IMG/VR virus record: IMGVR_UViG_3300046007_010127
Length of the DNA stretch: 63,706 bases
Direction: 5' to 3' (one strand)
Source of the DNA: an uncultured virus (IMG/VR IMGVR_UViG_3300046007_010127)
Lineage: Duplodnaviria > Heunggongvirae > Uroviricota > Caudoviricetes
Shown here in pieces: positions 1 through 51,028 of the stretch (position 1 is the stretch's first letter; each line of letters begins with the position of its first letter). Position numbers and translations under genes: made by a program. The notes beneath the pieces were generated by a model. That model did not search any database. It was not told where the DNA came from and was given only the letters and a program-made list of their open reading frames with translations.

Positions 1-2
1 CA

Positions 3-773
3 CAGTTAAAAGGCGGTGTGGAAAAAGGTAAGCAATTTCCTTTCCGCTATTGGTCAGCTTATAAAGCAATACAGGGTGCGGACGTCCATAACAAGCAAGC
101 CATTCTGGATACACTCGAAGAATGTATAGATATTTCTGTTGGTAATATGCCTAAATTAAACGGTAAAGTTGCTTGCTTGTCCGATAATTCAGGATCTTCG
201 TGGGGATCTTGTAATAGCGAATATGGGACAGTAACTGTAGCAGAGATTGCTAATCTTTCGTCCCTTATTACTGCATTACAATCAGATGAAGGAGTGGTTG
301 GAGTATTTGGTGACGAATTATCATTACAGCCAGTATCCAAAAGAAATGGTCTGCTAACCCAATTAAAAGAAACATCTGAAAGGGGTAGAAAACAAGGAGG
401 AGGAACAGAAAATGGTATTTGGATTTTCTGGGATGATGCTATAAAAAATAAAGTTCACTATGACACTGTATTCATATATTCAGATATGCAGGCAGGTCAT
501 GGAGGTCTTTATGGGCACAGACATACTGTAGGTTCATCGCCTTACGGATTCGACGGGCAAGGAGATGTACACGTTGACGTATTATCTATGGTACAGGAAT
601 ACAGAAGAACTGTAAATTCTAAAGTTAATGTCTTCTGTGTACAAGTAGCTGGATACAACAATTCAGTATTACCTGAGAATCTTTACCGAGGAGCAATCCT
701 TGCCGGATGGACTGGTAAAGAGCCTTCATTCGCAAAATCAATTATTGACATCTGGGATTCTATAGAGTCATAA
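3..773 (+). CDS. TROVE/Ro60-family RNA-binding protein, C-terminal part with vWA domain (5' truncated by window edge)
   Basis: QFPFRYWSAY TROVE motif, MIDAS-like DNSGSS and YSDMQ vWA motifs; frame is open back to the window start. Confidence 0.8.
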   Translation, partial: QLKGGVEKGKQFPFRYWSAYKAIQGADVHNKQAILDTLEECIDISVGNMPKLNGKVACLSDNSGSSWGSCNSEYGTVTVAEIANLSSLITALQSDEGVVGVFGDELSLQPVSKRNGLLTQLKETSERGRKQGGGTENGIWIFWDDAIKNKVHYDTVFIYSDMQAGHGGLYGHRHTVGSSPYGFDGQGDVHVDVLSMVQEYRRTVNSKVNVFCVQVAGYNNSVLPENLYRGAILAGWTGKEPSFAKSIIDIWDSIES

Positions 774-797
774 TCAGATATTATAGACTAATTATCT

Positions 798-826
798 AAT
801 CCTCACCTTAGGGTGAGGATTTTTTT
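798..826 (+). terminator. Intrinsic terminator after TROVE gene
   Basis: aatcctcacc-ttag-ggtgaggatt hairpin followed by a T-run. Confidence 0.8.
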
Positions 827-860
827 GTGTTTTTTTGATAGAATCAAGATAAATAGCTAT

Positions 861-1136
861 ATGAAGAATATAAAAACGTTTGAGAGCTACGGCTACGAGG
901 TTAAAGATATAAGTAGTCAATTCCCAATAAAAAAATACGGAGATGAATTTCCTCTATCAAATTTAAGCCCTGGTGATTCTGTTGTATATCTAGGTGCTAA
1001 ATTTACAGTGGATAGTGTTGATGATTATGTAATGGTTTTGAGAAGCAATGACGGATCAACTATTAAGGTTAACCAAAATATGTTTAATACTAGAGGGTTT
1101 ATTGGAAAAGATTACGTTCCCTCTAAAATGATGTAA
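861..1136 (+). CDS. Hypothetical protein (MKNIKTFESY N-terminus)
   Basis: ORF; start moved from 813 to ATG 861, just after GATAAATA (848-855). Confidence 0.65.
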   Translation: MKNIKTFESYGYEVKDISSQFPIKKYGDEFPLSNLSPGDSVVYLGAKFTVDSVDDYVMVLRSNDGSTIKVNQNMFNTRGFIGKDYVPSKMM

Positions 1137-1137
1137 T

Positions 1138-1338
1138 ATGAGAGACAACGTTAAGATATTCGAGATGCTTTCTGAAAAAACTAGAAATGATCTAAATAGT
1201 TTTTCAGATCTTCTAGAGGAATCAACTGGAAATATTGATATTAGTAAGAGATTCTCTGATCTAATACAAAGGGTAGTAGTAGAGTCATACTACGGTTCGA
1301 AAGAAAAAATAAATTTTAATCCGGATGGCAAAGGTTAA
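1138..1338 (+). CDS. Hypothetical protein
   Basis: ORF immediately after the previous gene. Confidence 0.55.
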   Translation: MRDNVKIFEMLSEKTRNDLNSFSDLLEESTGNIDISKRFSDLIQRVVVESYYGSKEKINFNPDGKG

Positions 1339-1498
1339 AAACTCAGATTCACTTAAAAATCACAAAAGATCGCACAAAAAGAAAAGACCTGGTATACATT
1401 CAAAATGTAAATCTAGCGTAAGTAAGAATGCTAAACACTACAAAAAGCCCTATAAATCTCAAGGAAGATAGGAAGGATATATAATAAAAAAGATTAAA

Positions 1499-1900
1499 AT
1501 GAGACATCTTAGAATATACGAGAGTTTTGTCAGAGAAATGGATCCTATGACTATGGACCAGGACATGGATACTATGGAAATGGATCAGGACATGGAGACT
1601 CAATACGATCCCTATGCTACTGGAGAATTCGAAGCAGAATCAACTTCGTTTACACCTATTGATGATGAAAAAGACGGCGATTATATAGTTAATTTTATAA
1701 ATGCTGACGGAGAAGAAACAACTATAACGATAGGACATGCAATAGATCCAGAGTATGTTGGCAAAACAATGGTAAGTTCAATCGATATGATCCCTGACTC
1801 TAGTTCAGACGGTAGAGAATATTCATTGGTTGGATACTATGACGAAATACCAGGATCTGCTGGAGCTTATGAGCTAAAAAAAGTTCTAATTGAAGGATAA
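1499..1900 (+). CDS. Acidic hypothetical protein (MRHLRIYESF N-terminus)
   Basis: ORF with GATATATA upstream; short MDQDM repeats. Confidence 0.7.
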   Translation: MRHLRIYESFVREMDPMTMDQDMDTMEMDQDMETQYDPYATGEFEAESTSFTPIDDEKDGDYIVNFINADGEETTITIGHAIDPEYVGKTMVSSIDMIPDSSSDGREYSLVGYYDEIPGSAGAYELKKVLIEG

Positions 1901-2190
1901 TGTCTATTAAAATCTATTCCGGATACGACGAATTTAAATACGAAGAGCCCGAACTATGCGAATATGTAGAGGATGAATCAGGATATCCGGATGAATCGGA
2001 ATCAGAAGAAGAAACTGATGATATATTTTTCTATTCTAGAGAATCCAATAGTTTTTCTGACACTTCCACTTTTTATGTAGTTTCTGATTTAGAGGATGAA
2101 GAAAATGCGGAAGACATATCTGGGTATCTAGGTAAGTTTAAAAGAATCTATATAAATGATTCTCACAAGGTTTTATTTTGCGTAAGTTAA
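1900..2190 (+). CDS. Acidic hypothetical protein
   Basis: ORF, TAATG-coupled to the upstream gene. Confidence 0.65.
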   Translation: MSIKIYSGYDEFKYEEPELCEYVEDESGYPDESESEEETDDIFFYSRESNSFSDTSTFYVVSDLEDEENAEDISGYLGKFKRIYINDSHKVLFCVS

Positions 2191-2194
2191 AAAA

Positions 2195-3121
2195 ATGAAT
2201 AATATACTATCTTTTAAAGATTTTGTTCTCTTTGAAGACAAAGAGACTAACACAACAAAAAAACTCTTCGATCTTGATAACAAGATGACTTATAAGACCA
2301 TTAAGGATTTAAGAACATCTAAAATAGGAGACAAAAGATACACTTTCTTCTGTGTTGGAAGCGGAATGGAAGCTTATGCAAATTCATTCTTAGAAAAGGA
2401 TAAAGAGAGAGGCGAGGCGCTTCAAAAAATTGCAAACAACAAAGATAAAACATTAGTCTTTAGCGAGCAGGGAATATACGTAGTATCTGAGGCGGTATTT
2501 AACGGACTAGTTTCTCTTTCAACAACTATCTTTACATACGTTCCAGATGGATCTATAACAGCAGGAATTAGTATAACAAGGGTTTTTAAGCTTATTAATG
2601 TTTACTACAATAATAAAGGAAAAGCACCATTCGATAGTATGAAGGAAGATCCGGCAGCAATAGCAAAAATAATAATATCGGATCTTTATAAATTGGCGGA
2701 TTCGTCACCTAAGGCATCAGAGGCGGTATCTGTTTTAACAGTAGCACTTTATAAATCTGCCCCTTCATCATTTAAAACAATACCTAATTTCTTAGAAGAT
2801 TGCGTCTATAATACAGCAAAGGACCTAAATCTAAAATCTGTAAAAGTTGGACAGAATATAGAAGATTTCTATAAAGTAGCACAAAATACTCTGGATAATC
2901 TTAATGTACCAATTCTTAAAAATATAGAAATGGGTCTTGATAAAATGTCTGCTATAATAGAAAAAGGAATAAGAAAGACTAATATATTTTCAACAAAGAT
3001 AGGTAAAGAAGCTGGTGAGGCTTTAAAAGCAGCTCAAGAAAGAATAGCTCCTACAGGTAAAGCTATAGCCTCTAAGAGTAAACCTATATGGGATTCTATA
3101 TTTGGAAAAAAATCGAAATAA
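2195..3121 (+). CDS. Hypothetical protein
   Basis: 308-aa ORF. Confidence 0.75.
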   Translation: MNNILSFKDFVLFEDKETNTTKKLFDLDNKMTYKTIKDLRTSKIGDKRYTFFCVGSGMEAYANSFLEKDKERGEALQKIANNKDKTLVFSEQGIYVVSEAVFNGLVSLSTTIFTYVPDGSITAGISITRVFKLINVYYNNKGKAPFDSMKEDPAAIAKIIISDLYKLADSSPKASEAVSVLTVALYKSAPSSFKTIPNFLEDCVYNTAKDLNLKSVKVGQNIEDFYKVAQNTLDNLNVPILKNIEMGLDKMSAIIEKGIRKTNIFSTKIGKEAGEALKAAQERIAPTGKAIASKSKPIWDSIFGKKSK

Positions 3122-3158
3122 TTCCTGAAATCGTTTTTTTTATTTATGTTAAACCCTC

Positions 3159-3196
3159 TATATTTGTGAAACAAAACAAAAGGAACGATATATAAC
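3159..3196 (+). promoter_or_regulatory. Stacked promoters of tRNA operon 1
   Basis: TATATTTG (3159, Bacteroidota -7 type), GAAAC (3168) with TATAAC (3191), and GATATATA (3187). Confidence 0.55.
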
Positions 3197-3202
3197 AGAT
3201 AT

Positions 3203-3277
3203 ATGAAAAATCTAAACAACATATTACCTATATCATTAAGACCGTCGATAAGACGATCTCTAAAGGTCCTGTGTTAG
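3203..3277 (+). CDS. Leader peptide 1 (MKNLNNILPISLRPSIRRSLKVLC) of the tRNA operon 1 attenuator
   Basis: 24-codon ORF rich in ATA/TTA/TCN/AGA/CCN codons; last codons contain the antiterminator taaaggtcctg (3261-3271). Confidence 0.75.
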   Translation: MKNLNNILPISLRPSIRRSLKVLC

Positions 3278-3297
3278 TTTTCAATATATACTAAACT

Positions 3298-3332
3298 AAA
3301 AAACCGGGACCTTTAAAAGTCCCGGTTTTTTT
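3298..3332 (+). terminator. Attenuator terminator 1
   Basis: ccgggac/gtcccgg stem plus T7; 3305-3315 is complementary to 3261-3271. Confidence 0.85.
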
Positions 3333-3333
3333 A

Positions 3334-3345
3334 TGTTCTTTGAAA
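3334..3345 (+). promoter_or_regulatory. boxA-like antitermination site
   Basis: TGTTCTTTGAAA, resembling rrn boxA; found at the same position in all three tRNA operons. Confidence 0.65.
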
Positions 3346-3350
3346 TAATT

Positions 3351-3439
3351 GGAGAGGTGGCAGAGTTGGTTTAATGCACCTGTCTTGAAAACAGACGTAG
3401 TGAAAGTTACCGGGGGTTCGAATCCCTCCCTCTCCGCCA
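3351..3439 (+). tRNA. tRNA-Ser(TGA)
   Basis: Cloverleaf, loop CTTGAAA, long variable arm, encoded CCA. Confidence 0.95.
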
Positions 3440-3442
3440 ATT

Positions 3443-3516
3443 GGTCCGATAGCTCAGCTGGATAGAGCAACTGCCTTCTAAGCAGTAGGTCGCAGGTTCG
3501 AATCCTGCTCGGATCA
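3443..3516 (+). tRNA. tRNA-Arg(TCT)
   Basis: Cloverleaf, anticodon arm ACTGC-CTTCTAA-GCAGT. Confidence 0.95.
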
Positions 3517-3522
3517 CTATAT

Positions 3523-3598
3523 CGGGATGTAGATCAGTTGGTAGATCGCCTGGTTTGGGACCAGGAGGCCCCAGGTTCGAGTCCTGGTATCCCGACCA
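3523..3598 (+). tRNA. tRNA-Pro(TGG)
   Basis: Cloverleaf, CCTGG-TTTGGGA-CCAGG, encoded CCA. Confidence 0.95.
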
Positions 3599-3599
3599 T

Positions 3600-3673
3600 A
3601 GAGATGTAGCTCAATTGGTTAGAGCACATGCCTTATACGCATGCGGTCACGAGTTCGACTCTCGTCGTCTCTA
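3600..3673 (+). tRNA. tRNA-Ile(TAT)
   Basis: Cloverleaf, CATGC-CTTATAC-GCATG. Confidence 0.85.
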
Positions 3674-3677
3674 CTTA

Positions 3678-3751
3678 GGTCCCTTAGCTCAGTAGGTTAG
3701 AGCAACTGACTCATAATCAGTAGGTCCACGGTTCGAGCCCGTGAGGGACCA
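3678..3751 (+). tRNA. tRNA-CAT, probably Ile2 (lysidine type)
   Basis: Cloverleaf, ACTGA-CTCATAA-TCAGT; GGTCCCT acceptor resembles bacterial Ile2 rather than Met. Confidence 0.8.
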
Positions 3752-3766
3752 CAAAATTAATAATCT

Positions 3767-3847
3767 GCCTGGGTGGTGAAATTGGTAGACACGTTCGGCT
3801 TAAGATCGAATGCGAAATGCGTGAGGGTTCGAGTCCCTCCTCGGGTA
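3767..3847 (+). tRNA. tRNA-Leu(TAA)
   Basis: Type II cloverleaf, TTCGG-CTTAAGA-TCGAA. Confidence 0.9.
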
Positions 3848-3852
3848 CATAT

Positions 3853-3955
3853 ATAAGAGTGGCGGAAGCGAGATCATTTATGATCCGATGGAGAGACGCT
3901 AGGGTGTCATGCCCGAGAACGAAAGTTCATGTTGGTTCAAGTCCAACCTCTTGTA
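3853..3955 (+). ncRNA. Atypical tRNA-like RNA (D-loop hairpin insertion, non-canonical anticodon arm)
   Basis: Acceptor ATAAGAG/CTCTTGT, T-arm GTTGG-TTCAAGT-CCAAC, variable arm GAAC-GAAA-GTTC, extra GATCA-TTTA-TGATC hairpin. Confidence 0.6.
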
Positions 3956-3974
3956 CTTTTTTAATTATAAATAA

Positions 3975-4262
3975 CTATACAGTTAATTTTTCTACCTTAG
4001 CTACTGAATATTTTTTACCCTCTCCGTAATTTCCTCCAGGTGTTTCATTTAAAGTAACTTTAAAATAGTAACCTGAAACTGAATTACTTTTAATAGAGTA
4101 AACAAGATCAGACTTTTGAGTTACTGAATCTATTGATTGCATACCCATTTTAGATGCAACAGTATCGCTAGAAATTATTGATTTTATTTTTTCTGCTGTA
4201 GAATAAAAAGGCGCAGCAGCCTCATTCATTATTTCGTTTTTAAAATCTTCGAATCTTTTCAT
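3975..4262 (-). CDS. Hypothetical protein (MKRFEDFKNE N-terminus)
   Basis: ORF in a two-gene minus-strand unit. Confidence 0.65.
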   Translation of the reverse strand: MKRFEDFKNEIMNEAAAPFYSTAEKIKSIISSDTVASKMGMQSIDSVTQKSDLVYSIKSNSVSGYYFKVTLNETPGGNYGEGKKYSVAKVEKLTV

Positions 4263-4275
4263 TTCTTATTATATT

Positions 4276-4827
4276 TTACTTAGCCTCTTTAATTCTGAAG
4301 TATCCTCGGTGATCGGTTTTACCTGGTTCTACACCATCTTCGAATTTACAATATCCAGTAGAATTAAAGAAGTTCCATTCTTCTCTTCTGCCTTTACTAA
4401 GTTTATCCTGTGGCATTAAAGATCTATTATATTCTTGATTTTCTTGGTTAATTCTCTTATACATTCCATTATAAAATGTAGATGTGCTAAGTAAATTCGT
4501 AGCTTCTTCCATTAATCTTCTATTGATATTATAGTCAAATATAGCCTCATGAATAGAAATCTCTGAAATGCCTCTTCTATAGCTAATCCATTGCGATATA
4601 ATTCCACCATAATTATATGGTGTATAAGCTAAATCCCCTACGTAAAAAAGATTAAAATATGGAGAATTCTCTTTGCTGTGATCGAACAACCTTATGTTAG
4701 TATTAAAATATGGTACAGTTCCTCCGAATTCTTTCATTCTATTATGGAATCCAGGAAGTATCTCTAATGTTATCGATGTGGGATTATTATTTGTATCAAA
4801 TCCTTCGAATAGCTTAATATGTTTCAT
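4276..4827 (-). CDS. Hypothetical protein (MKHIKLFEGF N-terminus)
   Basis: ORF with minus-strand GATATATA at 4832-4839. Confidence 0.7.
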   Translation of the reverse strand: MKHIKLFEGFDTNNNPTSITLEILPGFHNRMKEFGGTVPYFNTNIRLFDHSKENSPYFNLFYVGDLAYTPYNYGGIISQWISYRRGISEISIHEAIFDYNINRRLMEEATNLLSTSTFYNGMYKRINQENQEYNRSLMPQDKLSKGRREEWNFFNSTGYCKFEDGVEPGKTDHRGYFRIKEAK

Positions 4828-4911
4828 ATATTATATATCCATAGTATGATCCATAAATAAGAAACAAAATCTATTATAGGATGTAAAATTGTTAATACAA
4901 AACGTAAGATT

Positions 4912-5604
4912 GTGATTGAAGAATTAAAAGATTTTTATTGGGACTGGATGTCAGATGGAACGGAACAGGGAAACTATCATAAAGAAACCATGATAGGTGA
5001 GATATTTGTCCAAAGAGCCTATGAAAGATTCTTTGAAGTAGATGAGGGAGATATCGTTGTAGATATTGGAGCTAGTGTAGGTCCTTTTACAAAGTCAATT
5101 CTTCATAAAAATCCAAAACACGTATTTTGTTTAGAACCAAGCTATTCCGAATTTAAATGTCTAGTTAAAAATACCATAGGTTACCCTGTTACACAAGTAA
5201 ATAAAGGAATATGGGAAACAAACGGAACGGCTAATAGCGATCAACTATTCGGTGGTGAATCTGTAATGGAAGCTCTAACATTCCAAACGTTTATAGATCT
5301 TTTCTCGATAGAAAAAATAGACTTTCTTAAAACTGATTGTGAAGGGGGTGAGTACGAGATATTCAAAACCGAAAATATAGAATACCTAAAAAATAATGTT
5401 AGTAAAATAACTGGAGAATGGCACTTAAGAAGCCCTGAGAATAAATTAAGATTTAGAAATTTTAGAGATAATATACTTTCACAATTTCAAAAATATGAAG
5501 TTTATTCTGTCGATGGTGTCGACATTAAATGGGATTTATGGAATGAGCATTTTATAGAATATTATGAGGAGATAATATTGTATATAGATAACAGAACCAA
5601 TTAA
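4912..5604 (+). CDS. FkbM-family SAM-dependent methyltransferase
   Basis: VVDIGASVG and IDFLKTDCEGGE motifs. Confidence 0.85.
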   Translation: MIEELKDFYWDWMSDGTEQGNYHKETMIGEIFVQRAYERFFEVDEGDIVVDIGASVGPFTKSILHKNPKHVFCLEPSYSEFKCLVKNTIGYPVTQVNKGIWETNGTANSDQLFGGESVMEALTFQTFIDLFSIEKIDFLKTDCEGGEYEIFKTENIEYLKNNVSKITGEWHLRSPENKLRFRNFRDNILSQFQKYEVYSVDGVDIKWDLWNEHFIEYYEEIILYIDNRTN

Positions 5605-5626
5605 GACTGTGGTTATGAGATATATA

Positions 5627-6067
5627 TTATTTGTTTTCGATAAGAAGCTCTCCAAGAACTTCTATCTTGCCGACAAGCTCCTGGAATTCCACTTGAGTGA
5701 TATTCATAGAGTTTCTAGTTGCTTCATAAAGATCAGTTAATAGATCATCATACTCTCCTTTAAGATTATCCATATCTAATTCCCCGTCTACACTCTTTTG
5801 ATAGTATGGAAGTTTAACATGAAAATGGTGATATGTTAATAAAGCATCTCCACCTTTTTCTTTTGCAGCCTTGGATATTTTTGTTGCGCCAGCTAATCTA
5901 TTCTCTGAAAATTCTTGTAGTGTCTCTTTTTCTTCGTTTACATCGGAATTTTCTTTTACACAGTTAGGTACAGGTCTACCGTCTTTATCCTTGGTTCCAA
6001 TTTGCTTGTAACCAGCCCAGCAAGGTCCTTTTTTTTCGAGTATAAATTTGTCGTAATCTAGTATCAT
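5627..6067 (-). CDS. Hypothetical protein with PCWxGY...VPNCV motif seen in large-phage proteins
   Basis: ORF; minus-strand GATATATA at 6072-6079. Confidence 0.7.
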   Translation of the reverse strand: MILDYDKFILEKKGPCWAGYKQIGTKDKDGRPVPNCVKENSDVNEEKETLQEFSENRLAGATKISKAAKEKGGDALLTYHHFHVKLPYYQKSVDGELDMDNLKGEYDDLLTDLYEATRNSMNITQVEFQELVGKIEVLGELLIENK

Positions 6068-6104
6068 ATCCTATATATCACGAAAGATATATACATTACC
6101 TAAT

Positions 6105-6470
6105 ATGAAAAATATTTATACCTATAACGACTTCATTAATGAAGGCAAAGATCCAAAGAAAGGTTCAGGTAAAAAACCTAAAGGATCCGGTAGAAGACTT
6201 TACACGGATGAAAATCCGGACGATACTGTACCGATAAAATTCAGAACTAAGGAAGATGTACAGGAAACTGTTAACAGCAGTGCTTTTAAATCTAAAACAC
6301 ACCAAAGACAATCTCAGATTTTAAATCTAATAGAACAAAGGCTTCGTGTTGCAGTAAGAGAAGCAAAAGATCCATCCACTAAGAGAAGACTAAAGAGAGC
6401 ACACGAATATGCTTTACTAAAATGTGAATCTTCTAAAAGAAAAACCCAGAGGGTTAAAGATAACAGGTGA
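6105..6470 (+). CDS. Basic hypothetical protein (GKKPKGSGRRLYTDENP motif)
   Basis: ORF; GATATATA at 6086. Confidence 0.7.
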   Translation: MKNIYTYNDFINEGKDPKKGSGKKPKGSGRRLYTDENPDDTVPIKFRTKEDVQETVNSSAFKSKTHQRQSQILNLIEQRLRVAVREAKDPSTKRRLKRAHEYALLKCESSKRKTQRVKDNR

Positions 6471-6492
6471 CTCTATTAATAATAAGAATTCG

Positions 6493-6861
6493 ATGAATAA
6501 TCATATAAAGATAACCGGACTAGGAATAGAAATATACAATAAAGATTTTGTATCTATGAAATGGGGCAAGGCATTCGATATGGCTTTAAGATTAGGAGAT
6601 GGATGGAGACTTCCTACCATAGAAGAAATGAGAATAGTAAGATCCATAAGAGATGTAGGAGGAATTGGAAATTTTCCTCGATATAAAGAATTTGACGATT
6701 ATTATTACTGGACATCTAGAGAGGGGGAAACATTAAACTCAAGAACAACTTTAGCAGACGGATCTGTTGCTTACGCATATTTTTTTGATATAGGTGATGG
6801 GGAATTTTCACACAATAAAAAATCATACGAACTTAGGGTTAGGTTTGTCAGAGATATATAG
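6493..6861 (+). CDS. DUF1566/Lcl-like domain protein
   Basis: DGWRLPTIEEM, YYWTS and terminal VRFVR motifs; start moved to ATG 6493. Confidence 0.6.
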   Translation: MNNHIKITGLGIEIYNKDFVSMKWGKAFDMALRLGDGWRLPTIEEMRIVRSIRDVGGIGNFPRYKEFDDYYYWTSREGETLNSRTTLADGSVAYAYFFDIGDGEFSHNKKSYELRVRFVRDI

Positions 6862-6864
6862 AAT

Positions 6865-7716
6865 ATGCCAACATCAAGACCTTTCGCATATAATCCAACA
6901 CAAGCAACAATTTCTGGAACTACAAATGTAGGTACATTATGCGTAGGTGTATCTGCTTTAAACTATGGTGCAAATCCAGGAGGACTAACTTGGTGGATGG
7001 GTCCGGACGAGGATAATTCTTATATAATAGCTAAAGATGTACCATCCGGCGATTTTCCAACACCAGTAGGTAGTATAGGTACTGTACAATTCTGGGGATG
7101 CTCTAATACAGATGAAGCTTTTAGAAGTACAGTACAAATAATAAGCGGTATTACACAAGCATCTGCTTCAGCTGCTAATGCTTGGTTAACAGCAAATAAC
7201 TATTGGACTAATCGGGATCCGTATCTTGCAGGCTTATACAAAACAACTTACAGTGGTTATTTTAATGATAATGTTAGTTTCTTTGCAACAGCAACTCCTG
7301 CATCTGTAGGCGGAAATCCTGCTACATCAGTACAAACTACTTCTATATTTGAACCTTCTCAGAATGATGGAGAAAATTTCAGTTGTCAGTGGTTAGGATA
7401 TTTCAAACCAACCACTACAGAAACATATACTTTTTTCACATCATCTGATGATGCGTCATATGTGTGGATAGGTTCAAATGCACAGACAGGTTTTACCACA
7501 GGAAACTCTACAGTTAATAATGGAGGACTTCACGGAACTTTAGAGAAATCAGGCTCAATTGCATTAACTGCTGGTACATATTATCAAATAAGAATACAAT
7601 TTGGAGAACTAAGTGGAGGCGATGTTATGACATTTAATTTCTCAACCCCTACTATCTCGAAAACAACCAATGTAACAGGACTAGTATTTTATAATCCGTC
7701 CACTAATGGATTCTAA
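6865..7716 (+). CDS. PA14-domain protein (putative carbohydrate-binding virion protein)
   Basis: FSCQWLGYF...YTFFTSSDDASYVWIG...NNGGLHG...LTAGTYYQIRIQFGE. Confidence 0.8.
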   Translation: MPTSRPFAYNPTQATISGTTNVGTLCVGVSALNYGANPGGLTWWMGPDEDNSYIIAKDVPSGDFPTPVGSIGTVQFWGCSNTDEAFRSTVQIISGITQASASAANAWLTANNYWTNRDPYLAGLYKTTYSGYFNDNVSFFATATPASVGGNPATSVQTTSIFEPSQNDGENFSCQWLGYFKPTTTETYTFFTSSDDASYVWIGSNAQTGFTTGNSTVNNGGLHGTLEKSGSIALTAGTYYQIRIQFGELSGGDVMTFNFSTPTISKTTNVTGLVFYNPSTNGF

Positions 7717-7752
7717 TTCAATAATTAGATATATAGACTATAAAAAAAAGAA

Positions 7753-8031
7753 ATGAAATACCTAAAAAAATATCAAGACAATAATCGCAATATTAACGAA
7801 GGGTTTTGGGATTCCATTTTTGGAAAACCCACTGTTGATGACGCTGCTCACGATTCTCTTAGAGGCCAAGGATTTAGTCACAGAGGTAAAGACGAAGAAA
7901 ACTACATCATGTTCCAGGGACAAAAATTTTATCCTGAGCAGATTCAGTATGATGACGTTTACTCGACTAAGCCTATCCCAAGAGTAGAGAATGGGATGCT
8001 TATAGTTGCTAATCCTGCTTGGAATCTATAA
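7753..8031 (+). CDS. Hypothetical protein
   Basis: ORF; GATATATA at 7728. Confidence 0.65.
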   Translation: MKYLKKYQDNNRNINEGFWDSIFGKPTVDDAAHDSLRGQGFSHRGKDEENYIMFQGQKFYPEQIQYDDVYSTKPIPRVENGMLIVANPAWNL

Positions 8032-8059
8032 AAAAAATAAAAAATCATTTTTTTATACT

Positions 8060-8090
8060 GAAACTTTTATCTACTTTTGTAGTATATAAA
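8060..8090 (+). promoter_or_regulatory. Stacked promoters of tRNA operon 2
   Basis: GAAAC (8060), TACTTTTG (8072), AGTATATAAA (8081). Confidence 0.5.
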
Positions 8091-8110
8091 CAAAACAACA
8101 AAAAAATTCA

Positions 8111-8188
8111 ATGCAACAATTTCTAAATATCGGAATAGATGCTCAGCTCGATCTTCTTGAGGATATTGGAAAGTGTCAGAGGAAATAA
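8111..8188 (+). CDS. Leader peptide 2 (MQQFLNIGIDAQLDLLEDIGKCQRK) of the tRNA operon 2 attenuator
   Basis: 25-codon ORF with a GAT/CTN/GAG block; antiterminator tgtcagagg (8174-8182) in the last codons. Confidence 0.72.
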   Translation: MQQFLNIGIDAQLDLLEDIGKCQRK

Positions 8189-8209
8189 ATTTATATAAAG
8201 ATACAATTT

Positions 8210-8238
8210 AAACCTCTGATAACCTCAGAGGTTTTTTT
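8210..8238 (+). terminator. Attenuator terminator 2
   Basis: aaacctctga-taacc-tcagaggttt plus T-run; 8213-8221 is complementary to 8174-8182. Confidence 0.85.
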
Positions 8239-8247
8239 GTTTTTATA

Positions 8248-8259
8248 TGTTCTTTGAAA
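8248..8259 (+). promoter_or_regulatory. boxA-like antitermination site
   Basis: TGTTCTTTGAAA, identical to 3334-3345. Confidence 0.65.
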
Positions 8260-8263
8260 TTAT

Positions 8264-8335
8264 GGTCGGTTCATCTAGGGGTCAGGATACAAGGTTTTCA
8301 TCCTTGTCACACGGGTTCGAATCCCGTACCGACTA
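8264..8335 (+). tRNA. tRNA-Glu(TTC)
   Basis: Cloverleaf, CAAGG-TTTTCAT-CCTTG. Confidence 0.92.
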
Positions 8336-8336
8336 C

Positions 8337-8404
8337 AAAGGGGGAAAATAGTTAGAAGGGCCTTTCCTGAAAGATGGCACGCTAGGCCCGTATTTGAACC
8401 CTTT
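8337..8404 (+). ncRNA. Candidate small structured RNA between tRNA-Glu and tRNA-Asp
   Basis: Nested stems aaaggg/cccttt, aaata/tattt and gggcct/aggccc. Confidence 0.35.
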
Positions 8405-8410
8405 AATTTA

Positions 8411-8484
8411 GGTCCGTTAGTAGAGTTGGTCACAACGCCGCCCTGTCACGGCGGAGGTCATGGGTTCGAATCCCATACGGACCG
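8411..8484 (+). tRNA. tRNA-Asp(GTC)
   Basis: Cloverleaf, CCGCC-CTGTCAC-GGCGG. Confidence 0.95.
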
Positions 8485-8491
8485 CAAACAT

Positions 8492-8564
<73 letters not shown>

Positions 8565-8568
8565 CTAA

Positions 8569-8649
8569 GCCCAGGTGGTGAAATGGTATACACGCTAGTC
8601 TTAGGAACTAGTGACGTAAGTCGTGAGGGTTCGAGTCCCTCCCTGGGTA
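8569..8649 (+). tRNA. tRNA-Leu(TAG)
   Basis: Type II cloverleaf, CTAGT-CTTAGGA-ACTAG. Confidence 0.93.
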
Positions 8650-8651
8650 CT

Positions 8652-9221
8652 ATGAAGATCATATTTTTAGATCATGATGGAGTAATTTGTCTTTCACAAC
8701 AATTTGGGGGACGCTACAAAAAGCAGGCTAAGGCTAGAACAAAGCTTTCTCAAAGTGTGATGGATTTTCCGGTTGGAGCTAGATTTGATAACTTCGATAA
8801 GAAAGCTATTAAAGTTCTAAACTTAATCTTAGAAGAGACTGGAGCTGAAATAGTTGTTTCTTCAGATTGGAAGAACTGGGCAAATGTTGAAGAGATGGGA
8901 GAATACTACGAACAACAGGGTATAATTAAAAAACCTATCGACTTCACTCCTAGAGAATACACAATGCCCGAAAAACAAGAATGGCATCCAGACTGGGATT
9001 TAGAAGCATCAAGAACTTTAGAAATCCAAGAATGGCTAAAAGATCATCCAGATGTTACTCATTGGGTAGCAATAGATGATTTAGACATGAGCTTTAAAGA
9101 AGTATCAAATAATAGAAGTGGTACTGGATGGGGATTAACAAATTTTGTACATACCCCGAGTGTCACTGAGGGGATTAAAAAATCAGGAATTAAGCATAAA
9201 ATCGTTAAATTTTTACTCTAA
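8652..9221 (+). CDS. HAD-superfamily phosphatase (Swiss-Army-knife RNA-repair type)
   Basis: IIFLDHDGV, IVVSSDW and WVAIDD motifs; true start is ATG 8652, after tRNA-Leu. Confidence 0.8.
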   Translation: MKIIFLDHDGVICLSQQFGGRYKKQAKARTKLSQSVMDFPVGARFDNFDKKAIKVLNLILEETGAEIVVSSDWKNWANVEEMGEYYEQQGIIKKPIDFTPREYTMPEKQEWHPDWDLEASRTLEIQEWLKDHPDVTHWVAIDDLDMSFKEVSNNRSGTGWGLTNFVHTPSVTEGIKKSGIKHKIVKFLL

Positions 9222-9290
9222 TAGTTAAAATCTTTTTTTTAGCCCGTTATATTTCATTAATTCTGTGATATAATTAATAAAGTTATTATT

Positions 9291-9668
9291 ATGGAAAATG
9301 AAAAATTAAAAAGAGTTACTATGAGGGTATCTCACGAAAATCCTGATGCACAGGTAAATTTCACAGCTATTGGTATCGGAAAGAATCAAAAAGAAGCAGC
9401 TATTTTTGCTTTGGGATCTTTCCTAAATGTTATGAATGGTGTAAGTGATGAAGGGGTATCAGATTACAATGAAGCTTTGGAAATGGTTAACGACCAATAT
9501 TCGGAGGAGGAAGTGAGTTTTTTTATCGAGAAAAAATTAGAAGCAAATGCTGATGCTTTCTTCAATGCTTACGAATCAACTAAAGTGGATTATGTTTGGG
9601 ACGAGGTAGAAGGAGAAGAATCAATAGGATTAATCCAAGAAATGGAAGTAGTAGAGGAAAAATATTAA
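9291..9668 (+). CDS. Acidic hypothetical protein
   Basis: ORF. Confidence 0.7.
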   Translation: MENEKLKRVTMRVSHENPDAQVNFTAIGIGKNQKEAAIFALGSFLNVMNGVSDEGVSDYNEALEMVNDQYSEEEVSFFIEKKLEANADAFFNAYESTKVDYVWDEVEGEESIGLIQEMEVVEEKY

Positions 9669-9708
9669 AAAATATCGGAAATCATTTTTTTATTTAAAAA
9701 AGATATTG

Positions 9709-9746
9709 TACTTTTACGAAACTATTCTGGAAACAGGATATATAAT
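9709..9746 (+). promoter_or_regulatory. Stacked promoters of tRNA operon 3
   Basis: TACTTTTA (9709), GAAAC (9718) with TATAAT (9741), and GATATATA (9737). Confidence 0.5.
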
Positions 9747-9754
9747 TAAGAAAA

Positions 9755-9862
9755 ATGAAAAACTGTAGTAAACATAACATCATTCGCATGAACAGTCAGA
9801 TTAATGGCTGCTATCAAACGGTGGCGTTTTGGGCTAAGGGGAAAGAACCCGATCGAAGCTAA
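9755..9862 (+). CDS. Leader peptide 3 (MKNCSKHNIIRMNSQINGCYQTVAFWAKGKEPDRS) of the tRNA operon 3 attenuator
   Basis: 35-codon ORF with codons for all ten downstream anticodons; antiterminator gatcgaagct (9851-9860). Confidence 0.75.
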   Translation: MKNCSKHNIIRMNSQINGCYQTVAFWAKGKEPDRS

Positions 9863-9890
9863 TACAGAAAATCATATTTAGATATTTTGG

Positions 9891-9922
9891 AAAAGGCTTT
9901 GATTAACTTCAAAGCCTTTTTT
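9891..9922 (+). terminator. Attenuator terminator 3
   Basis: aaaaggctttga-ttaact-tcaaagcctttt; 9895-9904 can pair with 9851-9860. Confidence 0.85.
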
Positions 9923-9925
9923 ATT

Positions 9926-9937
9926 TGTTCTTTGACA
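9926..9937 (+). promoter_or_regulatory. boxA-like antitermination site
   Basis: TGTTCTTTGACA. Confidence 0.65.
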
Positions 9938-9950
9938 TACTGGAAAAAAT

Positions 9951-10023
9951 GGTACCGTAGCTCAGTTGGTAGAGCACTAGACTGAAAATCTAGGTGTCGC
10001 CGGTTCGATTCCGGCCGGTACCA
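9951..10023 (+). tRNA. tRNA-Phe(GAA)
   Basis: Cloverleaf, CTAGA-CTGAAAA-TCTAG. Confidence 0.95.
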
Positions 10024-10094
10024 CAATACTAAACAAGAAATTGTCACACTAAACTAATCATGTTTAGTATTACAAAAACAAGTTTAGTAAAAAT

Positions 10095-10168
10095 GATCTC
10101 GTAGCTCAGTTGGCTAGAGCACCTCACTTTTAATGAGGGAGTCGAGGGTTCGAGCCCCTCCGGGATCA
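10095..10168 (+). tRNA. tRNA-Lys(TTT)
   Basis: Cloverleaf, CCTCA-CTTTTAA-TGAGG. Confidence 0.95.
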
Positions 10169-10169
10169 C

Positions 10170-10306
10170 AAAGGTTGATTGGGGAAAGATGATGCCCATA
10201 ACATGAGAGTGTATATCGGTTGGTGTCATTGGAGTTGGGAGATATACACCTAAGTAAAGCCAATCGTAAAAGAGAATGTCCACGCAACCATCTTTCTCTT
10301 TCCTTT
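10170..10306 (+). ncRNA. Candidate ~137-nt structured RNA between tRNA-Lys and tRNA-Trp
   Basis: Stems aaagg/ccttt, ggggaaagatg/catctttctct and gtgtatatc/gatatacac. Confidence 0.5.
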
Positions 10307-10310
10307 AAAT

Positions 10311-10383
10311 GCGTCCTTAGCTCAATTGGTAGAGTGTTGGTCTCCAAAACCAAAGGTTGTAGGTTCGATCCCTACAGGGCGTG
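10311..10383 (+). tRNA. tRNA-Trp(CCA)
   Basis: Cloverleaf, TTGGT-CTCCAAA-ACCAA. Confidence 0.93.
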
Positions 10384-10390
10384 CTAAAAA

Positions 10391-10463
10391 GGTCCCGTAG
10401 TTCAATGGATTAGAATGGAACACTACGGATGTTCTGATCCTGGTTCGAGTCCAGGCGGGATCT
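10391..10463 (+). tRNA. tRNA-Arg(ACG)
   Basis: Cloverleaf, GAACA-CTACGGA-TGTTC. Confidence 0.93.
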
Positions 10464-10474
10464 CAAACAAATAA

Positions 10475-10545
10475 GGTCGTGTGGTCGAGTGGTTAGGCGC
10501 TAGTCTGCAAAACTAGTTATACTGGTTCGATTCCAGTCACGACCT
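10475..10545 (+). tRNA. tRNA-Cys(GCA)
   Basis: Cloverleaf, CTAGT-CTGCAAA-ACTAG. Confidence 0.93.
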
Positions 10546-10565
10546 CTAAAAAATAAAAAGTGCAT

Positions 10566-10697
10566 ATGGATAAAAGAGTTATAGTAAAAGGAAGTTTTGA
10601 TTCAAGTAGAGAAAATTTAAGAAGAGAGGGAATTAGCTTTACAATTAGTAAAGCCTTTCTCAAAAAAATTAAAAGAATACTTAAAAGAGGAAAGTAA
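10566..10697 (+). CDS. Possible small basic protein (43 aa) inside the tRNA array
   Basis: ATG after an A-rich stretch; MDKRVIVKGSFDSSRENLRREG...KRGK; stop overlaps the tRNA-Ser 5' end. Confidence 0.35.
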   Translation: MDKRVIVKGSFDSSRENLRREGISFTISKAFLKKIKRILKRGK

Positions 10698-10774
10698 TCC
10701 TGGATGGTGATGGGGCTCGCCTGCTAAGCGAAGTGTACCTTAATTGGTATCTGGTTCGATTCCAGTTCTTTCCG
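10689..10774 (+). tRNA. tRNA-Ser(GCT), atypical D arm
   Basis: CTCGC-CTGCTAA-GCGAA, variable arm TACC/GGTA, T-loop TTCGATT, acceptor GGAAAG/CTTTCC. Confidence 0.75.
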
Positions 10775-10780
10775 CAACAT

Positions 10781-10857
10781 TGACATGTAGCTCAGTTGGT
10801 TAGAGCGTTGATCTGATACGTCAAAGGCCGAAGGTTCGAATCCTTCTATGTCAACCA
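10781..10857 (+). tRNA. tRNA-Ile(GAT)
   Basis: Cloverleaf, TTGAT-CTGATAC-GTCAA, encoded CCA. Confidence 0.9.
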
Positions 10858-10863
10858 TTATTT

Positions 10864-10939
10864 AGTCTCTTAGCTCAGCTGGTAGAGCGTCTGCCTTACA
10901 TGCAGAATGCCGGGGGTTCGATTCCCCTCTGTCACCCCA
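10864..10939 (+). pseudogene. Chimeric tRNA-Val(TAC) with an unpaired acceptor stem (His-like 3' end)
   Basis: D, anticodon and T arms intact; 5' AGTCTCT cannot pair with 3' CTGTCAC-C-CCA. Confidence 0.7.
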
Positions 10940-10949
10940 TTTTATATAA

Positions 10950-11029
10950 GCCGATGTGGCTCAGTGGCGACAGCACCGCTTTTGTACAGCGGTATACAAA
11001 CATCGGGGGTTCGAGTCCCTCCATCGGCT
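10950..11029 (+). tRNA. tRNA-Thr(TGT), enlarged variable region
   Basis: Acceptor GCCGATG/CATCGGC, CCGCT-TTTGTAC-AGCGG, 12-nt variable segment. Confidence 0.85.
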
Positions 11030-11035
11030 CTATAT

Positions 11036-11108
11036 TGTCCTGTAGTGTAATTGGCAACACGTCTGATTTTGGTTCAGAAGACTCCAGGTTCGAGCCCTGG
11101 CGGGACAA
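11036..11108 (+). tRNA. tRNA-Gln(TTG)
   Basis: Cloverleaf, TCTGA-TTTTGGT-TCAGA. Confidence 0.92.
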
Positions 11109-11161
11109 CTTATTTTATGAAATAAAAAAAAAGATCTACAATATAAATAATAAAACATAAT

Positions 11162-12289
11162 ATGAAGAATGATATATGCTTGGTAATGATCGTAAAGGAT
11201 GAGGAAGAAGTTATTACCAGATGTTTAAATTCGGTTTGTTCTATTATAGATTATTGGGTAATAGTTGATACTGGGTCTGAAGATAATACTAAAGAAGTTA
11301 TTAGGGATTTTATGGAGGAGAAAAATATCCCCGGAGAATTATATGATAGAAAATGGGTAGATTTTTCTTATAATAGAAACGAAAGTTTAGAATTAGCAAA
11401 TGGTAAATGTAATTACATGCTAATAATGGATGCGGACGATCTATTGGAAATATCTGATTATTCTAAATTCAACAATTTATCTCTTCATTCTTATAATATA
11501 CCTATTTTATTGGACGGGTTAGAATATAAAAGATTGCAGATATTAAAATCCGGGTACGAATGGAAATATGAAGGGGTATTACACGAATACATAAAAATAC
11601 CCGATATAGAAAATTATACGGAGGGTATTATAGAGGGATCATGTATAATAGCAAATGCTAGCTATCCTGAAGGGCATCCAAAATACCTAGGAGATGGCGA
11701 ACTTTTAATGAGATTCATAGATGATCCAGAAATATCGGAGGATCTTAAAAGAAGGTATACTTTCTATTGTGGATTAAGTTTTATGTGGGGAAGAGATTTT
11801 AATAAAGCAATAGAGATCTTTAAGAAAAGATCAGAAATTGGTGGATGGCCGGAAGAAATATACGTTTCTCTGTGGTATCTAGCAAAATTAAAAGAAAAAA
11901 TGGGAGATGATGAAGATTCTATAATTAACTCGTATTTAAAAGCATGGGAATCTAGACCAGGGAGACACGAAGCAGCATACGATCTTCTTAAATTTATTTA
12001 TCCAAAAAAAAGATGGTATCTAGGATTTATTATAGCTAGATCATGTATATCTTCTAGCGGATTAAACGATTCACTATTCGTTGATAAAAATATAAGAGAT
12101 TGGGGGATTTATAATATTTATTCTCAATATGCTTACAATTGCGGATTTATAACTGAAGCTATAGGTGCGACCGAGAGATTAATAAATTCTAGTTCTTTTA
12201 ATATTATCCCGGATGATGAACAGAAAAAAATAATAAATAACTTAGAAGTATATGAAATTAGTTTAATACAAAGCTATACTCATATATAA
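11162..12289 (+). CDS. GT2 glycosyltransferase with TPR-like C-terminus
   Basis: CLVMIVKDEE, IVDTGSED, DFSYNRN, MDADD and GVLHE motifs. Confidence 0.88.
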   Translation: MKNDICLVMIVKDEEEVITRCLNSVCSIIDYWVIVDTGSEDNTKEVIRDFMEEKNIPGELYDRKWVDFSYNRNESLELANGKCNYMLIMDADDLLEISDYSKFNNLSLHSYNIPILLDGLEYKRLQILKSGYEWKYEGVLHEYIKIPDIENYTEGIIEGSCIIANASYPEGHPKYLGDGELLMRFIDDPEISEDLKRRYTFYCGLSFMWGRDFNKAIEIFKKRSEIGGWPEEIYVSLWYLAKLKEKMGDDEDSIINSYLKAWESRPGRHEAAYDLLKFIYPKKRWYLGFIIARSCISSSGLNDSLFVDKNIRDWGIYNIYSQYAYNCGFITEAIGATERLINSSSFNIIPDDEQKKIINNLEVYEISLIQSYTHI

Positions 12290-12336
12290 AAAAACCTAGG
12301 TTGAATAATTAAACCAGTATGTAAAAATTTAATATT

Positions 12337-12825
12337 ATGAAAGTTCTAGTGTTAAATAACGACTTTACACCTGTGAGTGTTACCGACATGGCTCGGGGAT
12401 TCAAGCTTGTATATAAAGGAAAAGCTGAAGTACTAGAACATGACGAATCTAATCCTATTGTTACGGACCAGAAAATTTACAAAAGACCCTCCGTTATAAG
12501 GCTTTTGAAATATGTTGTTCTACCTTTTAAGAAATTAAAACCAACCAGAGAAAATATATTTAAGAGAGACGAACTAAAATGCCTATATTGCGACTCATCT
12601 AAAAATCTTACCATAGATCACGTTAGACCAAAATCAAGAGGCGGAATAAACACATGGGAAAACCTTGCTACTTGTTGTTCAAAGTGTAACAGTATAAAGG
12701 GAGATAGAACACCAGAAGAAGCTGGAATGAAAATGAGACACAGACCTTTTAAACCAGGATATGGATATTTTATTAGAAATTTTTCCAAAGGAATGGACGT
12801 CTGGACCGCATATTTACCAGAATAA
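12337..12825 (+). CDS. HNH endonuclease (McrA-like)
   Basis: VLVLN; RDELKCLYC...TIDHVRPKSRGG...WENLATCCSKCNSIKG. Confidence 0.9.
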   Translation: MKVLVLNNDFTPVSVTDMARGFKLVYKGKAEVLEHDESNPIVTDQKIYKRPSVIRLLKYVVLPFKKLKPTRENIFKRDELKCLYCDSSKNLTIDHVRPKSRGGINTWENLATCCSKCNSIKGDRTPEEAGMKMRHRPFKPGYGYFIRNFSKGMDVWTAYLPE

Positions 12826-48810: not shown

Positions 48811-49403
48811 TAGATCCATTTAAAAAAAGATTTGAAGAATATAAACTTTCTATATCCGGACTTTCCTCACCACAGGAAGAATCTTTCATGTTTTGGTTTA
48901 ATAAATTCGTAAATAAAAACTCCCAATTCAATCCTCTAGATTTTTTATCAGGGAAAGTTTATTCGTTTGAATACAACGATAAACTAGAAGGAGGTAAGAA
49001 ATTTATAAATAAAAGACCTGTCGTGTTTTTTACAGGATACGACAACTATGAGAGAAAAAATATATTTAGCGGATTAGATCTAATACTAATACCACCTATT
49101 TTCAGAATGTATTTTTTTGAAAGAGTACAAAGCGTTTTCCAAGATCAGATTGAAAGAAATATAAGAAAAGATGAAAATGGGGAGGGAAGAGATCAATCTC
49201 CTTTAAAAACTGATTATCAAATAATGGAGTCCATATTAAAAGGAATCCCATATAAGCACTCATATAGATCTTGGGATTTAAAAAAAGTTAGGGGCGTTGT
49301 GGAAATTCCTTTTGAAGATTGGACTAGAATAGTATATCTTGATACTAGGTCAATTGAAGGGACCCAGCTTATTGAGATATATAATAAAAATTCACAAGTC
49401 TAA
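48807..49403 (+). CDS. DNA end protector (T4 gp2-like)
   Basis: GKVYSFEY, PVVF, GLDLILIPPIFR; next to gp4. Confidence 0.55.
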   Translation: MIDPFKKRFEEYKLSISGLSSPQEESFMFWFNKFVNKNSQFNPLDFLSGKVYSFEYNDKLEGGKKFINKRPVVFFTGYDNYERKNIFSGLDLILIPPIFRMYFFERVQSVFQDQIERNIRKDENGEGRDQSPLKTDYQIMESILKGIPYKHSYRSWDLKKVRGVVEIPFEDWTRIVYLDTRSIEGTQLIEIYNKNSQV

Positions 49404-51022: not shown

Positions 51023-51028
51023 TAGATA

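Follow-up and report, generated by a model that had tools for sequence, protein, structure and literature searches.

Probable leader-peptide transcription attenuator upstream of tRNA genes in an uncultured T4-like phage

The window analysed here, i.e., the whole stretch of 63,706 nucleotides of an uncultured virus (IMG/VR record IMGVR_UViG_3300046007_010127), contains upstream of a cluster of six tRNA genes a short region that is probably a ribosome-mediated (leader-peptide) transcription attenuator, with the phage's own tRNAs as the regulated genes. A short ORF precedes an intrinsic terminator there, a second pairing excludes this terminator, and the codons of the ORF and the antiterminator covary in 13 leader/cluster families. 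An attenuator before the Ser, Arg, Pro, Ile, Ile and Leu tRNAs had been proposed in a first-pass annotation of this site, and the covariation of the leader codons and of the stop-codon region among the 13 families now supports it computationally. The phage probably makes the tRNAs of this cluster (cluster A) only when ribosomes decode the leader codons slowly.

The window is a fragment of the genome of a T4-like myovirus with a G+C content of ~34%, and its ORFs encode a UvsX-like recombinase, a DnaB-type helicase, a large terminase, a tail sheath and a portal protein. The nearest cultured relatives are Sphingomonas phage PAU and Tenacibaculum phages PTm1 and PTm5, whose terminases are 32.0-32.8% identical to that of the window; the terminase of Flavobacterium phage MaF61 is 29.1% identical. 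Two neighbouring ORFs of 539 and 550 aa at 49403-52681 (plus strand) each match portal family phrog_213, which looks like a tandem duplication. A megablast search of positions 1-12500 against GenBank phages returned matches to tRNA genes only, and a distant blastn search of modules A and C (described below) against GenBank phages returned no match. In PTm1 and MaF61, an Rfam tRNA search found no tRNA, and the seven tRNAs of PAU sit after a protein gene at a gap of only ~90 nt, which leaves no leader. At least half of the sampled words of 2900-4000 are present in 18 lake-water metagenome runs. When four metatranscriptome runs were placed on 2900-4000, coverage was found at conserved parts of tRNAs only, with many mismatches and foreign flanks; the depth in 3270-3343 was at most 2.6, all of it from X19, and nothing was found before 3270. 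The promoter motif and the missing Shine-Dalgarno sequence discussed below, together with the distant relatives infecting flavobacteria, suggest a host of the Bacteroidota type.

ARAGORN finds 18 tRNA genes in the window, arranged in three clusters on the plus strand: A (3351-3848), B (8264-8650) and C (9951-11109). Cluster A, which was confirmed by Rfam, consists of Ser-tga, Arg-tct, Pro-tgg, Ile-tat, Met/Ile-cat and Leu-taa; cluster B contains Glu, Asp, Met and Leu-tag, and cluster C includes Ile-gat and Arg-acg. A low-scoring Ser(gct) gene with an acceptor-stem mismatch (10689-10775, plus strand) is also located in cluster C and is called by ARAGORN only at a relaxed threshold, while a Ser-gct of this type is a default ARAGORN call in a relative. 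At the gathering threshold, an Rfam scan of the whole window returned tRNA only, with no T-box or other family. A partial match at 10871-10928 (plus strand, cluster C) scores 48.2 bits as an Rfam tRNA and was missed by default ARAGORN. Directly after the tRNA-Leu of cluster A lies a tRNA-like element of ~103 nt (3853-3955, plus strand) with good acceptor and T arms and an enlarged D/anticodon region. It reaches 21.3 bits with the Rfam tRNA model, for which the cut-off is 29, and relaxed ARAGORN reads it as an odd Pro(agg) that carries an insert of 14 nt; this element may be a tRNA that is degenerate or unusual.

The leader ORF of module A (protein P0001) extends on the plus strand from the ATG at 3203 to the TAG at 3275-3277 and has 24 codons; its frame is kept in seven distinct orthologues. 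No Shine-Dalgarno sequence is found near the ATG at 3203, as would be expected if the host, itself deduced indirectly, belongs to the Bacteroidota. Codons 7-19 were listed in the first-pass annotation as an uninterrupted series of Ile, Leu, Pro, Ser and Arg codons. The sequence agrees with this list, and codon 20 (CTA) lengthens the run to 14 consecutive codons (3221-3262). The accompanying count of 10 codons out of 13 read directly by the downstream anticodons holds if U34 reads A and G (ATA three times, TTA twice, TCA, AGA twice, CCG and TCG); CCT and TCT require a U:U wobble, and CGA (codon 18) is unreadable by cluster A yet kept in all seven orthologues. The five amino acids account for 0.312 of the residues of the window's long ORFs, and at this frequency 13 of them in a row at a fixed place have a probability of ~2.6e-7. 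In the six-frame translation of the AT-rich window, their fraction is 0.39, with 11 runs of at least 10 and three runs of at least 14, so the codon run alone is not beyond chance, and it is its position and the comparison with relatives that carry weight. Among the seven orthologues of family A, codons 8-12 change only among Ile, Leu, Ser and Pro, and all Ile codons within codons 7-19 are ATA. As a separate observation, one viral locus (L074, record G013, reverse strand, box at 2614) carries a decayed module A: an ATG is lacking where the homologous leader would start, the box is not followed by tRNA-Ser, the first tRNA is located 127 nt downstream, and the terminator and the box are kept.

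In the window's long ORFs, ATA makes up 0.55 of Ile codons, AGA 0.79 of Arg codons and TTA 0.38 of Leu codons. Since these codons are common in the phage genes, the codon match of leader A partly mirrors general usage; the same numbers show that cluster A would serve the codons most used by the phage.

The intrinsic terminator of module A (3298-3331, plus strand), found by a terminator scan, has a stem of 13 pairs with the 5' arm at 3298-3310, a loop of 8 nt and a T run, and it ends 20 nt before tRNA-Ser. An A run on its 5' side mirrors the T run on its 3' side, so that the terminator is symmetric, and the scan scores the minus strand, too. The 5' strand of the antiterminator, hereafter segment 2 (3261-3280), overlaps the last four sense codons and the TAG of the leader and pairs with its own terminator arm at -16.6 kcal/mol. 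The pairing of 3261-3271 with 3305-3315, described earlier as 11 bp with one G-U, is present as stated, and so is its conflict with the terminator: the 3305-3315 strand lies partly inside the terminator 5' arm, and the antiterminator takes six of the seven bases of the arm portion 3304-3310. The calculated folding energies are similar in size: -19.1 kcal/mol for the antiterminator (3258-3316, folded by itself), -18.6 for the terminator and -16.0 for a leader-internal 1:2 structure that sequesters segment 2. As a whole, 3120-3350 folds better than all of 200 shuffled sequences (z = -4.47). The folds also contain a small hairpin in the leader (3240-3258, stem 3243-3246/3252-3255), the sequence of which is the same in six of the seven orthologues and carries in the remaining one (L075) a single synonymous change outside the stem; this may be a pause hairpin or part of the 1:2 structure.

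From this arrangement we infer the following course of events. Transcription would start near 3170 at a promoter of the Bacteroidota type and run into the leader ORF, in which codons 7-20 would represent a census of what the six downstream tRNAs can decode. When the leader is translated and decoding is fast, the ribosome would reach the stop codon at 3275-3277 and cover segment 2; the terminator would then form and the transcript would stop short of tRNA-Ser. When the matching charged tRNAs are scarce, the ribosome would stall in the codon run and leave segment 2 free to pair with 3305-3315, the terminator would be blocked and the RNA polymerase would continue. The read-through RNA contains a boxA-like site (3334-3346) and would probably load host Nus factors for processive transcription of the untranslated tRNA array, and the newly made tRNAs would end the stall, closing a negative feedback loop. 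With no ribosome on the leader, segment 2 could pair within the leader, as in the trp model. Judging by the size of the ribosome footprint, stalling on the last three or four codons would put the ribosome on top of segment 2; the well-placed positions are thus likely limited to the first nine codons or so.

The layout of module A is repeated in front of clusters B and C, the leaders of the three modules starting at 3203, 8111 and 9755. Each module contains, in this order, an upstream T-rich motif, a -7 box, a short ORF, a terminator, a 13-nt box and the first tRNA, which begins 5-13 nt past the box (16-25 nt when counted from where the 9-nt core of the box begins), and the three leader ORFs begin with the same few codons. 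Module B (8111-8260, plus strand) consists of the leader ORF at 8111-8188, the terminator at 8210-8234 and the box at 8248-8260, followed by cluster B; module C (9755-9938, plus strand) consists of the leader ORF at 9755-9862, the terminator at 9888-9923 and the box at 9926-9938, followed by cluster C. Another ORF, 9804-9881, was considered as leader C and rejected in favour of 9755-9862, whose start and first codons are those of the other leaders and which all relatives have retained.

Leaders A and C make different choices among synonymous codons. The Ile codons are ATA (three times) in leader A and ATC, ATT and ATT in leader C, the Arg codons are AGA (twice) and CGA in A and CGC and CGA in C, and the Ser codons are TCA, TCG and TCT in A and AGT, AGT and AGC in C. 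The choices of leader A match Ile-tat, Arg-tct and Ser-tga, and those of leader C match Ile-gat, Arg-acg and Ser-gct. In the window's long ORFs, CGN codons represent only 0.09 of Arg codons and AGY codons 0.24 of Ser codons, which makes the codon choices of leader C atypical of the phage.

A scan of IMG/VR with a pattern composed of the T run and the box returned 28 viral loci. In 19 of them a tRNA is found within 115 nt after the box; two end at a contig edge after the box and have a C-type leader, one has an insertion before the tRNAs, and six have no module. At 31 of 32 box-plus-tRNA sites, an ORF that begins with ATG and has 14 or more codons terminates 30-90 nt upstream of the box, the homologous frame at one of these 31 (L077, box at 889) starting with GTG. 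From the window and the tRNA regions of 15 of the IMG/VR records, 13 non-redundant leader/cluster families were defined, of which the window contributed three and contigs of uncultured viruses the other ten. The families and ORFs were picked by hand, by position and homology of the start codon, after the sequences had been seen, though not by their match to the tRNAs. The families carry very different tRNA sets: one has two Glu tRNAs and another four Leu tRNAs, others have Ser-Thr-Cys-Arg-Leu or Glu-Ala-Asp-Arg-Thr, and the large ones comprise 15 and 19 tRNAs.

Each leader was scored by the fraction of its codons that a tRNA set can decode under standard wobble rules. Summed over the 13 leaders and their own sets, this fraction is 5.52, compared to 3.35 +/- 0.37 for permuted sets, and none of 200,000 permutations reaches it; at the level of amino acids the sum is 6.39, compared to 4.20 +/- 0.38, again with none of 200,000. 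Eleven of the tRNA sets are matched best by their cognate leader and the other two by another leader, and every one of the 19 amino acids tested is commoner in leaders whose cluster holds its tRNA. In the small sets of families D, K and M, only ~0.2 of the leader codons are matched. The result is stable when the clusters are delimited by gap rules of 150, 300, 700 or 1500 nt, and it also holds with the smaller cluster C of the window itself (0 of 100,000 permutations each). The signal is specific to the reading frame: in frames +1 and +2 of the same DNA, 14,356 and 43,932 of 50,000 permutations, respectively, are as good as the true pairing.

This frame specificity, and the presence of the ORF at 31 of the 32 sites, is difficult to reconcile with an RNA element that works without translation, for instance a switch bound by a protein or a tRNA or a signal for processing, that gates or matures the tRNA transcript and of which the frame is a by-product. 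The decayed locus L074 is what such an element could look like, having lost the ATG and retained the rest of the module. On the other side, Rfam recognizes no T-box or other non-tRNA family in the window, and in two orthologues of family A the stop codon has been shifted by a one-base deletion and lies at the beginning of segment 2, still inside this segment, while the RNA sequence behind the shifted stop is kept in both. We consider such an element highly improbable, the least probable of the explanations weighed here.

A different question is what the leaders sense. The same structure could respond to general translation capacity or amino-acid supply, as affected by host shut-off or starvation, instead of the level of these particular tRNAs; the gate would then open whenever ribosomes slow down for whatever reason. 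An attenuator is unable to distinguish a missing tRNA from a missing amino acid, and the leaders of the large clusters of families C and J (15 and 19 tRNAs) sample almost all amino acids. The leaders of small clusters are, in contrast, specific: Glu codons precede two Glu tRNAs, Leu codons precede four Leu tRNAs, and in one family codons for Thr, Ala, Asp, Glu and Arg precede exactly those tRNAs. In addition, the isoacceptor-level codons differ between leaders A and C within one phage. A general signal is thus unlikely, although it is the strongest competitor of the sensing of the downstream tRNAs that we favour.

The terminator stems of the 13 families are unrelated in sequence (a MAFFT alignment of the terminator and box regions did not align the hairpins), while hairpins of 9-17 pairs are formed in all 13. 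The first-pass annotation had named homologs lacking the complementarity as evidence against attenuation; the complementarity was looked at and is present in all 13 families. For this, the 42 nt around the leader stop codon (-33 to +9) were paired with the terminator 5' arms of all 13 families. The stop-codon region pairs with its own arm at -12.1 to -20.1 kcal/mol, and in the 13 x 13 comparison the cognate pair is the strongest in all 13 rows and in 11 of the 13 columns. Added up over the families, the pairing energy is -203, compared to -106.7 +/- 11.1 for permuted pairs, and not one of 200,000 permutations gives so low a sum. In every family, 18-28 nt separate the stop codon from the arm that follows it. 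Within family A, one orthologue (L075) lacks one base of segment 2 together with the opposite base of segment 3, and the pairing is consequently still perfect.

The same data bear on the possibility that the ORF is a small-protein gene in its own right, equipped with a terminator, or that the hairpin only ends transcription coming from upstream, the tRNAs being expressed constitutively by read-through or from another promoter and the codon match being incidental. The first 6-8 leader codons are conserved between families, as would be those of a functional peptide, and a symmetric terminator could work on both strands. Such a gene would leave unexplained both why the composition of the leader tracks the tRNA set and why the stop-codon region mimics the 3' arm of its own terminator; moreover, the short distance between the terminator and the first tRNA leaves no room for a separate promoter. 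We regard this possibility as very unlikely and retain attenuation by leader translation as the preferred reading.

The putative promoter of module A is represented by a -7 box at 3159-3166 (plus strand), 44 nt before the leader ATG, which fits TAnnTTTG, a motif that we take to be the Bacteroidota -7 promoter consensus. A motif of this type is found 12-70 nt upstream of the leader ATG in 10 of the 13 families and is absent in the remaining three; a generic sigma-70 promoter scan performed no better than on shuffled sequences. At the other end of the module lies the conserved 13-nt box (3334-3346, plus strand), which has exact matches in the window only at 3334, 8248 and 9926. At position 3 it has the U that is presumably also found in rrn boxA of the Bacillus type. 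The 12-mer of Aquifex rrn BoxA is printed in PMC3177189, where E. coli is said to differ from it at positions 1, 6 and 9; positions 1-9 of the phage box agree with the E. coli sequence thus derived at seven of nine places. Position 9 is the Aquifex base, and position 3 is the reference base in the modules of four relatives. In bacteria, the exact box pattern occurs 59 nt before the 16S gene in one MAG (L113) and, with one mismatch, ~90 nt before the 16S gene of one Bacteroidota genome (L121); these are the only two genomes in which we observed the box in a 16S leader. A scan of genome contigs with the T-run and box pattern gave 39 loci, 37 of which have no adjacent Rfam RNA gene and were taken as chance matches. 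We read the box as a putative boxA-like site for Nus factors; a processing signal is a possible alternative role. A promoter inside the box was rejected because the first tRNA begins 5-25 nt later.

Box-like sequences were also noticed in other settings. On the reverse strand of a 194-kb viral record (L064, record G008), boxes at 4748, 5405 and 6447 lie between tRNA or tRNA-like genes and have no terminator. A box-like match in another record (L070, record G009, ~3590-3680) is surrounded by sequence that resembles a tmRNA 5' end. A complete look-alike module, with a short ORF, a terminator, a box and a tRNA 14 nt further on, is present on the reverse strand (1048-1320) of a 3.3-kb contig binned with a gut Bacteroidota MAG (L110, Muribaculaceae MAG contig); this contig may belong to a phage.

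Leader-peptide attenuators are known from the trp, his, leu, thr, ilv and pheA operons of enterobacteria, and the thr and ilv leaders are multivalent, i.e., respond to several amino acids. Module A shares with them a short leader ORF bearing regulatory codons, an intrinsic terminator, and an antiterminator strand that would be masked by a terminating ribosome and freed by a stalled one. It differs in that the genes regulated would be tRNAs and not enzymes, so that the product would act directly on the sensor. The phage leaders also represent a census of 1 to ~17 amino acids and track isoacceptor codons, and the module is present in one copy per tRNA cluster, has no Shine-Dalgarno sequence and is followed by a boxA-like site. 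The pheST attenuator of E. coli, in which a leader peptide controls an aminoacyl-tRNA synthetase operon, is similar in that a component of decoding is controlled by a leader peptide, but it is cellular, concerns a protein enzyme and responds to a single amino acid. T-box riboswitches likewise convert the status of tRNA into terminator read-through through an antiterminator; unlike the phage signal, which is specific to the reading frame, they bind uncharged tRNA directly without translation, and they regulate protein genes. Nus antitermination with BoxA is known from rrn operons and lambda nut sites (PMC3177189, PMC2800207 and PMC4807359); the phage box is similar to rrn BoxA and likewise heads a long untranslated RNA operon, but it comes after a terminator that would be regulated and heads arrays of phage tRNAs only, with putative binding of NusB/NusE. 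The general principle of leader-peptide attenuation is set out in PMC1183508. No account of leader-peptide attenuation of tRNA genes was found by full-text searches of the literature outside subscription-only papers or in the available part of a genome-wide attenuator survey (PMC2965389). The proposed mechanism is thus a classical one; what appears to be new is that it would act on tRNA genes and in a phage, with leaders of the census type and with a boxA-like site coupled to it.

The reasons for and the timing of the use of tRNA genes by phages have long been debated (PMC10264068). If the proposed attenuation is real, phage tRNAs are made on demand, under the control of their own decoding products, and the leaders are a direct read-out of the codons that are limiting for the phage. 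Somewhat speculatively, each cluster may form an autonomous supply-and-demand circuit, composed of a census peptide gauging the pool of just its own tRNAs, an attenuator turning this measurement into transcription and a boxA preparing the polymerase for the untranslated array, that is at the same time an inducible counter-measure replacing missing tRNAs. The trigger being the loss of decoding capacity, the circuit would serve in both ways: were the host tRNA pool depleted, be it through a shut-off that the phage induces or through anticodon nucleases of the host, the phage would supply precisely the missing tRNAs. The leaders could be used as small natural sensors that report how available specific tRNAs are, and since the module (promoter, census ORF, switch and boxA) is easily recognised, it could help to annotate the tRNA operons of uncultured phages. 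The finding would extend leader-peptide attenuation from enzymes of amino-acid metabolism to RNA genes, to phages and to expression signals of the Bacteroidota type.
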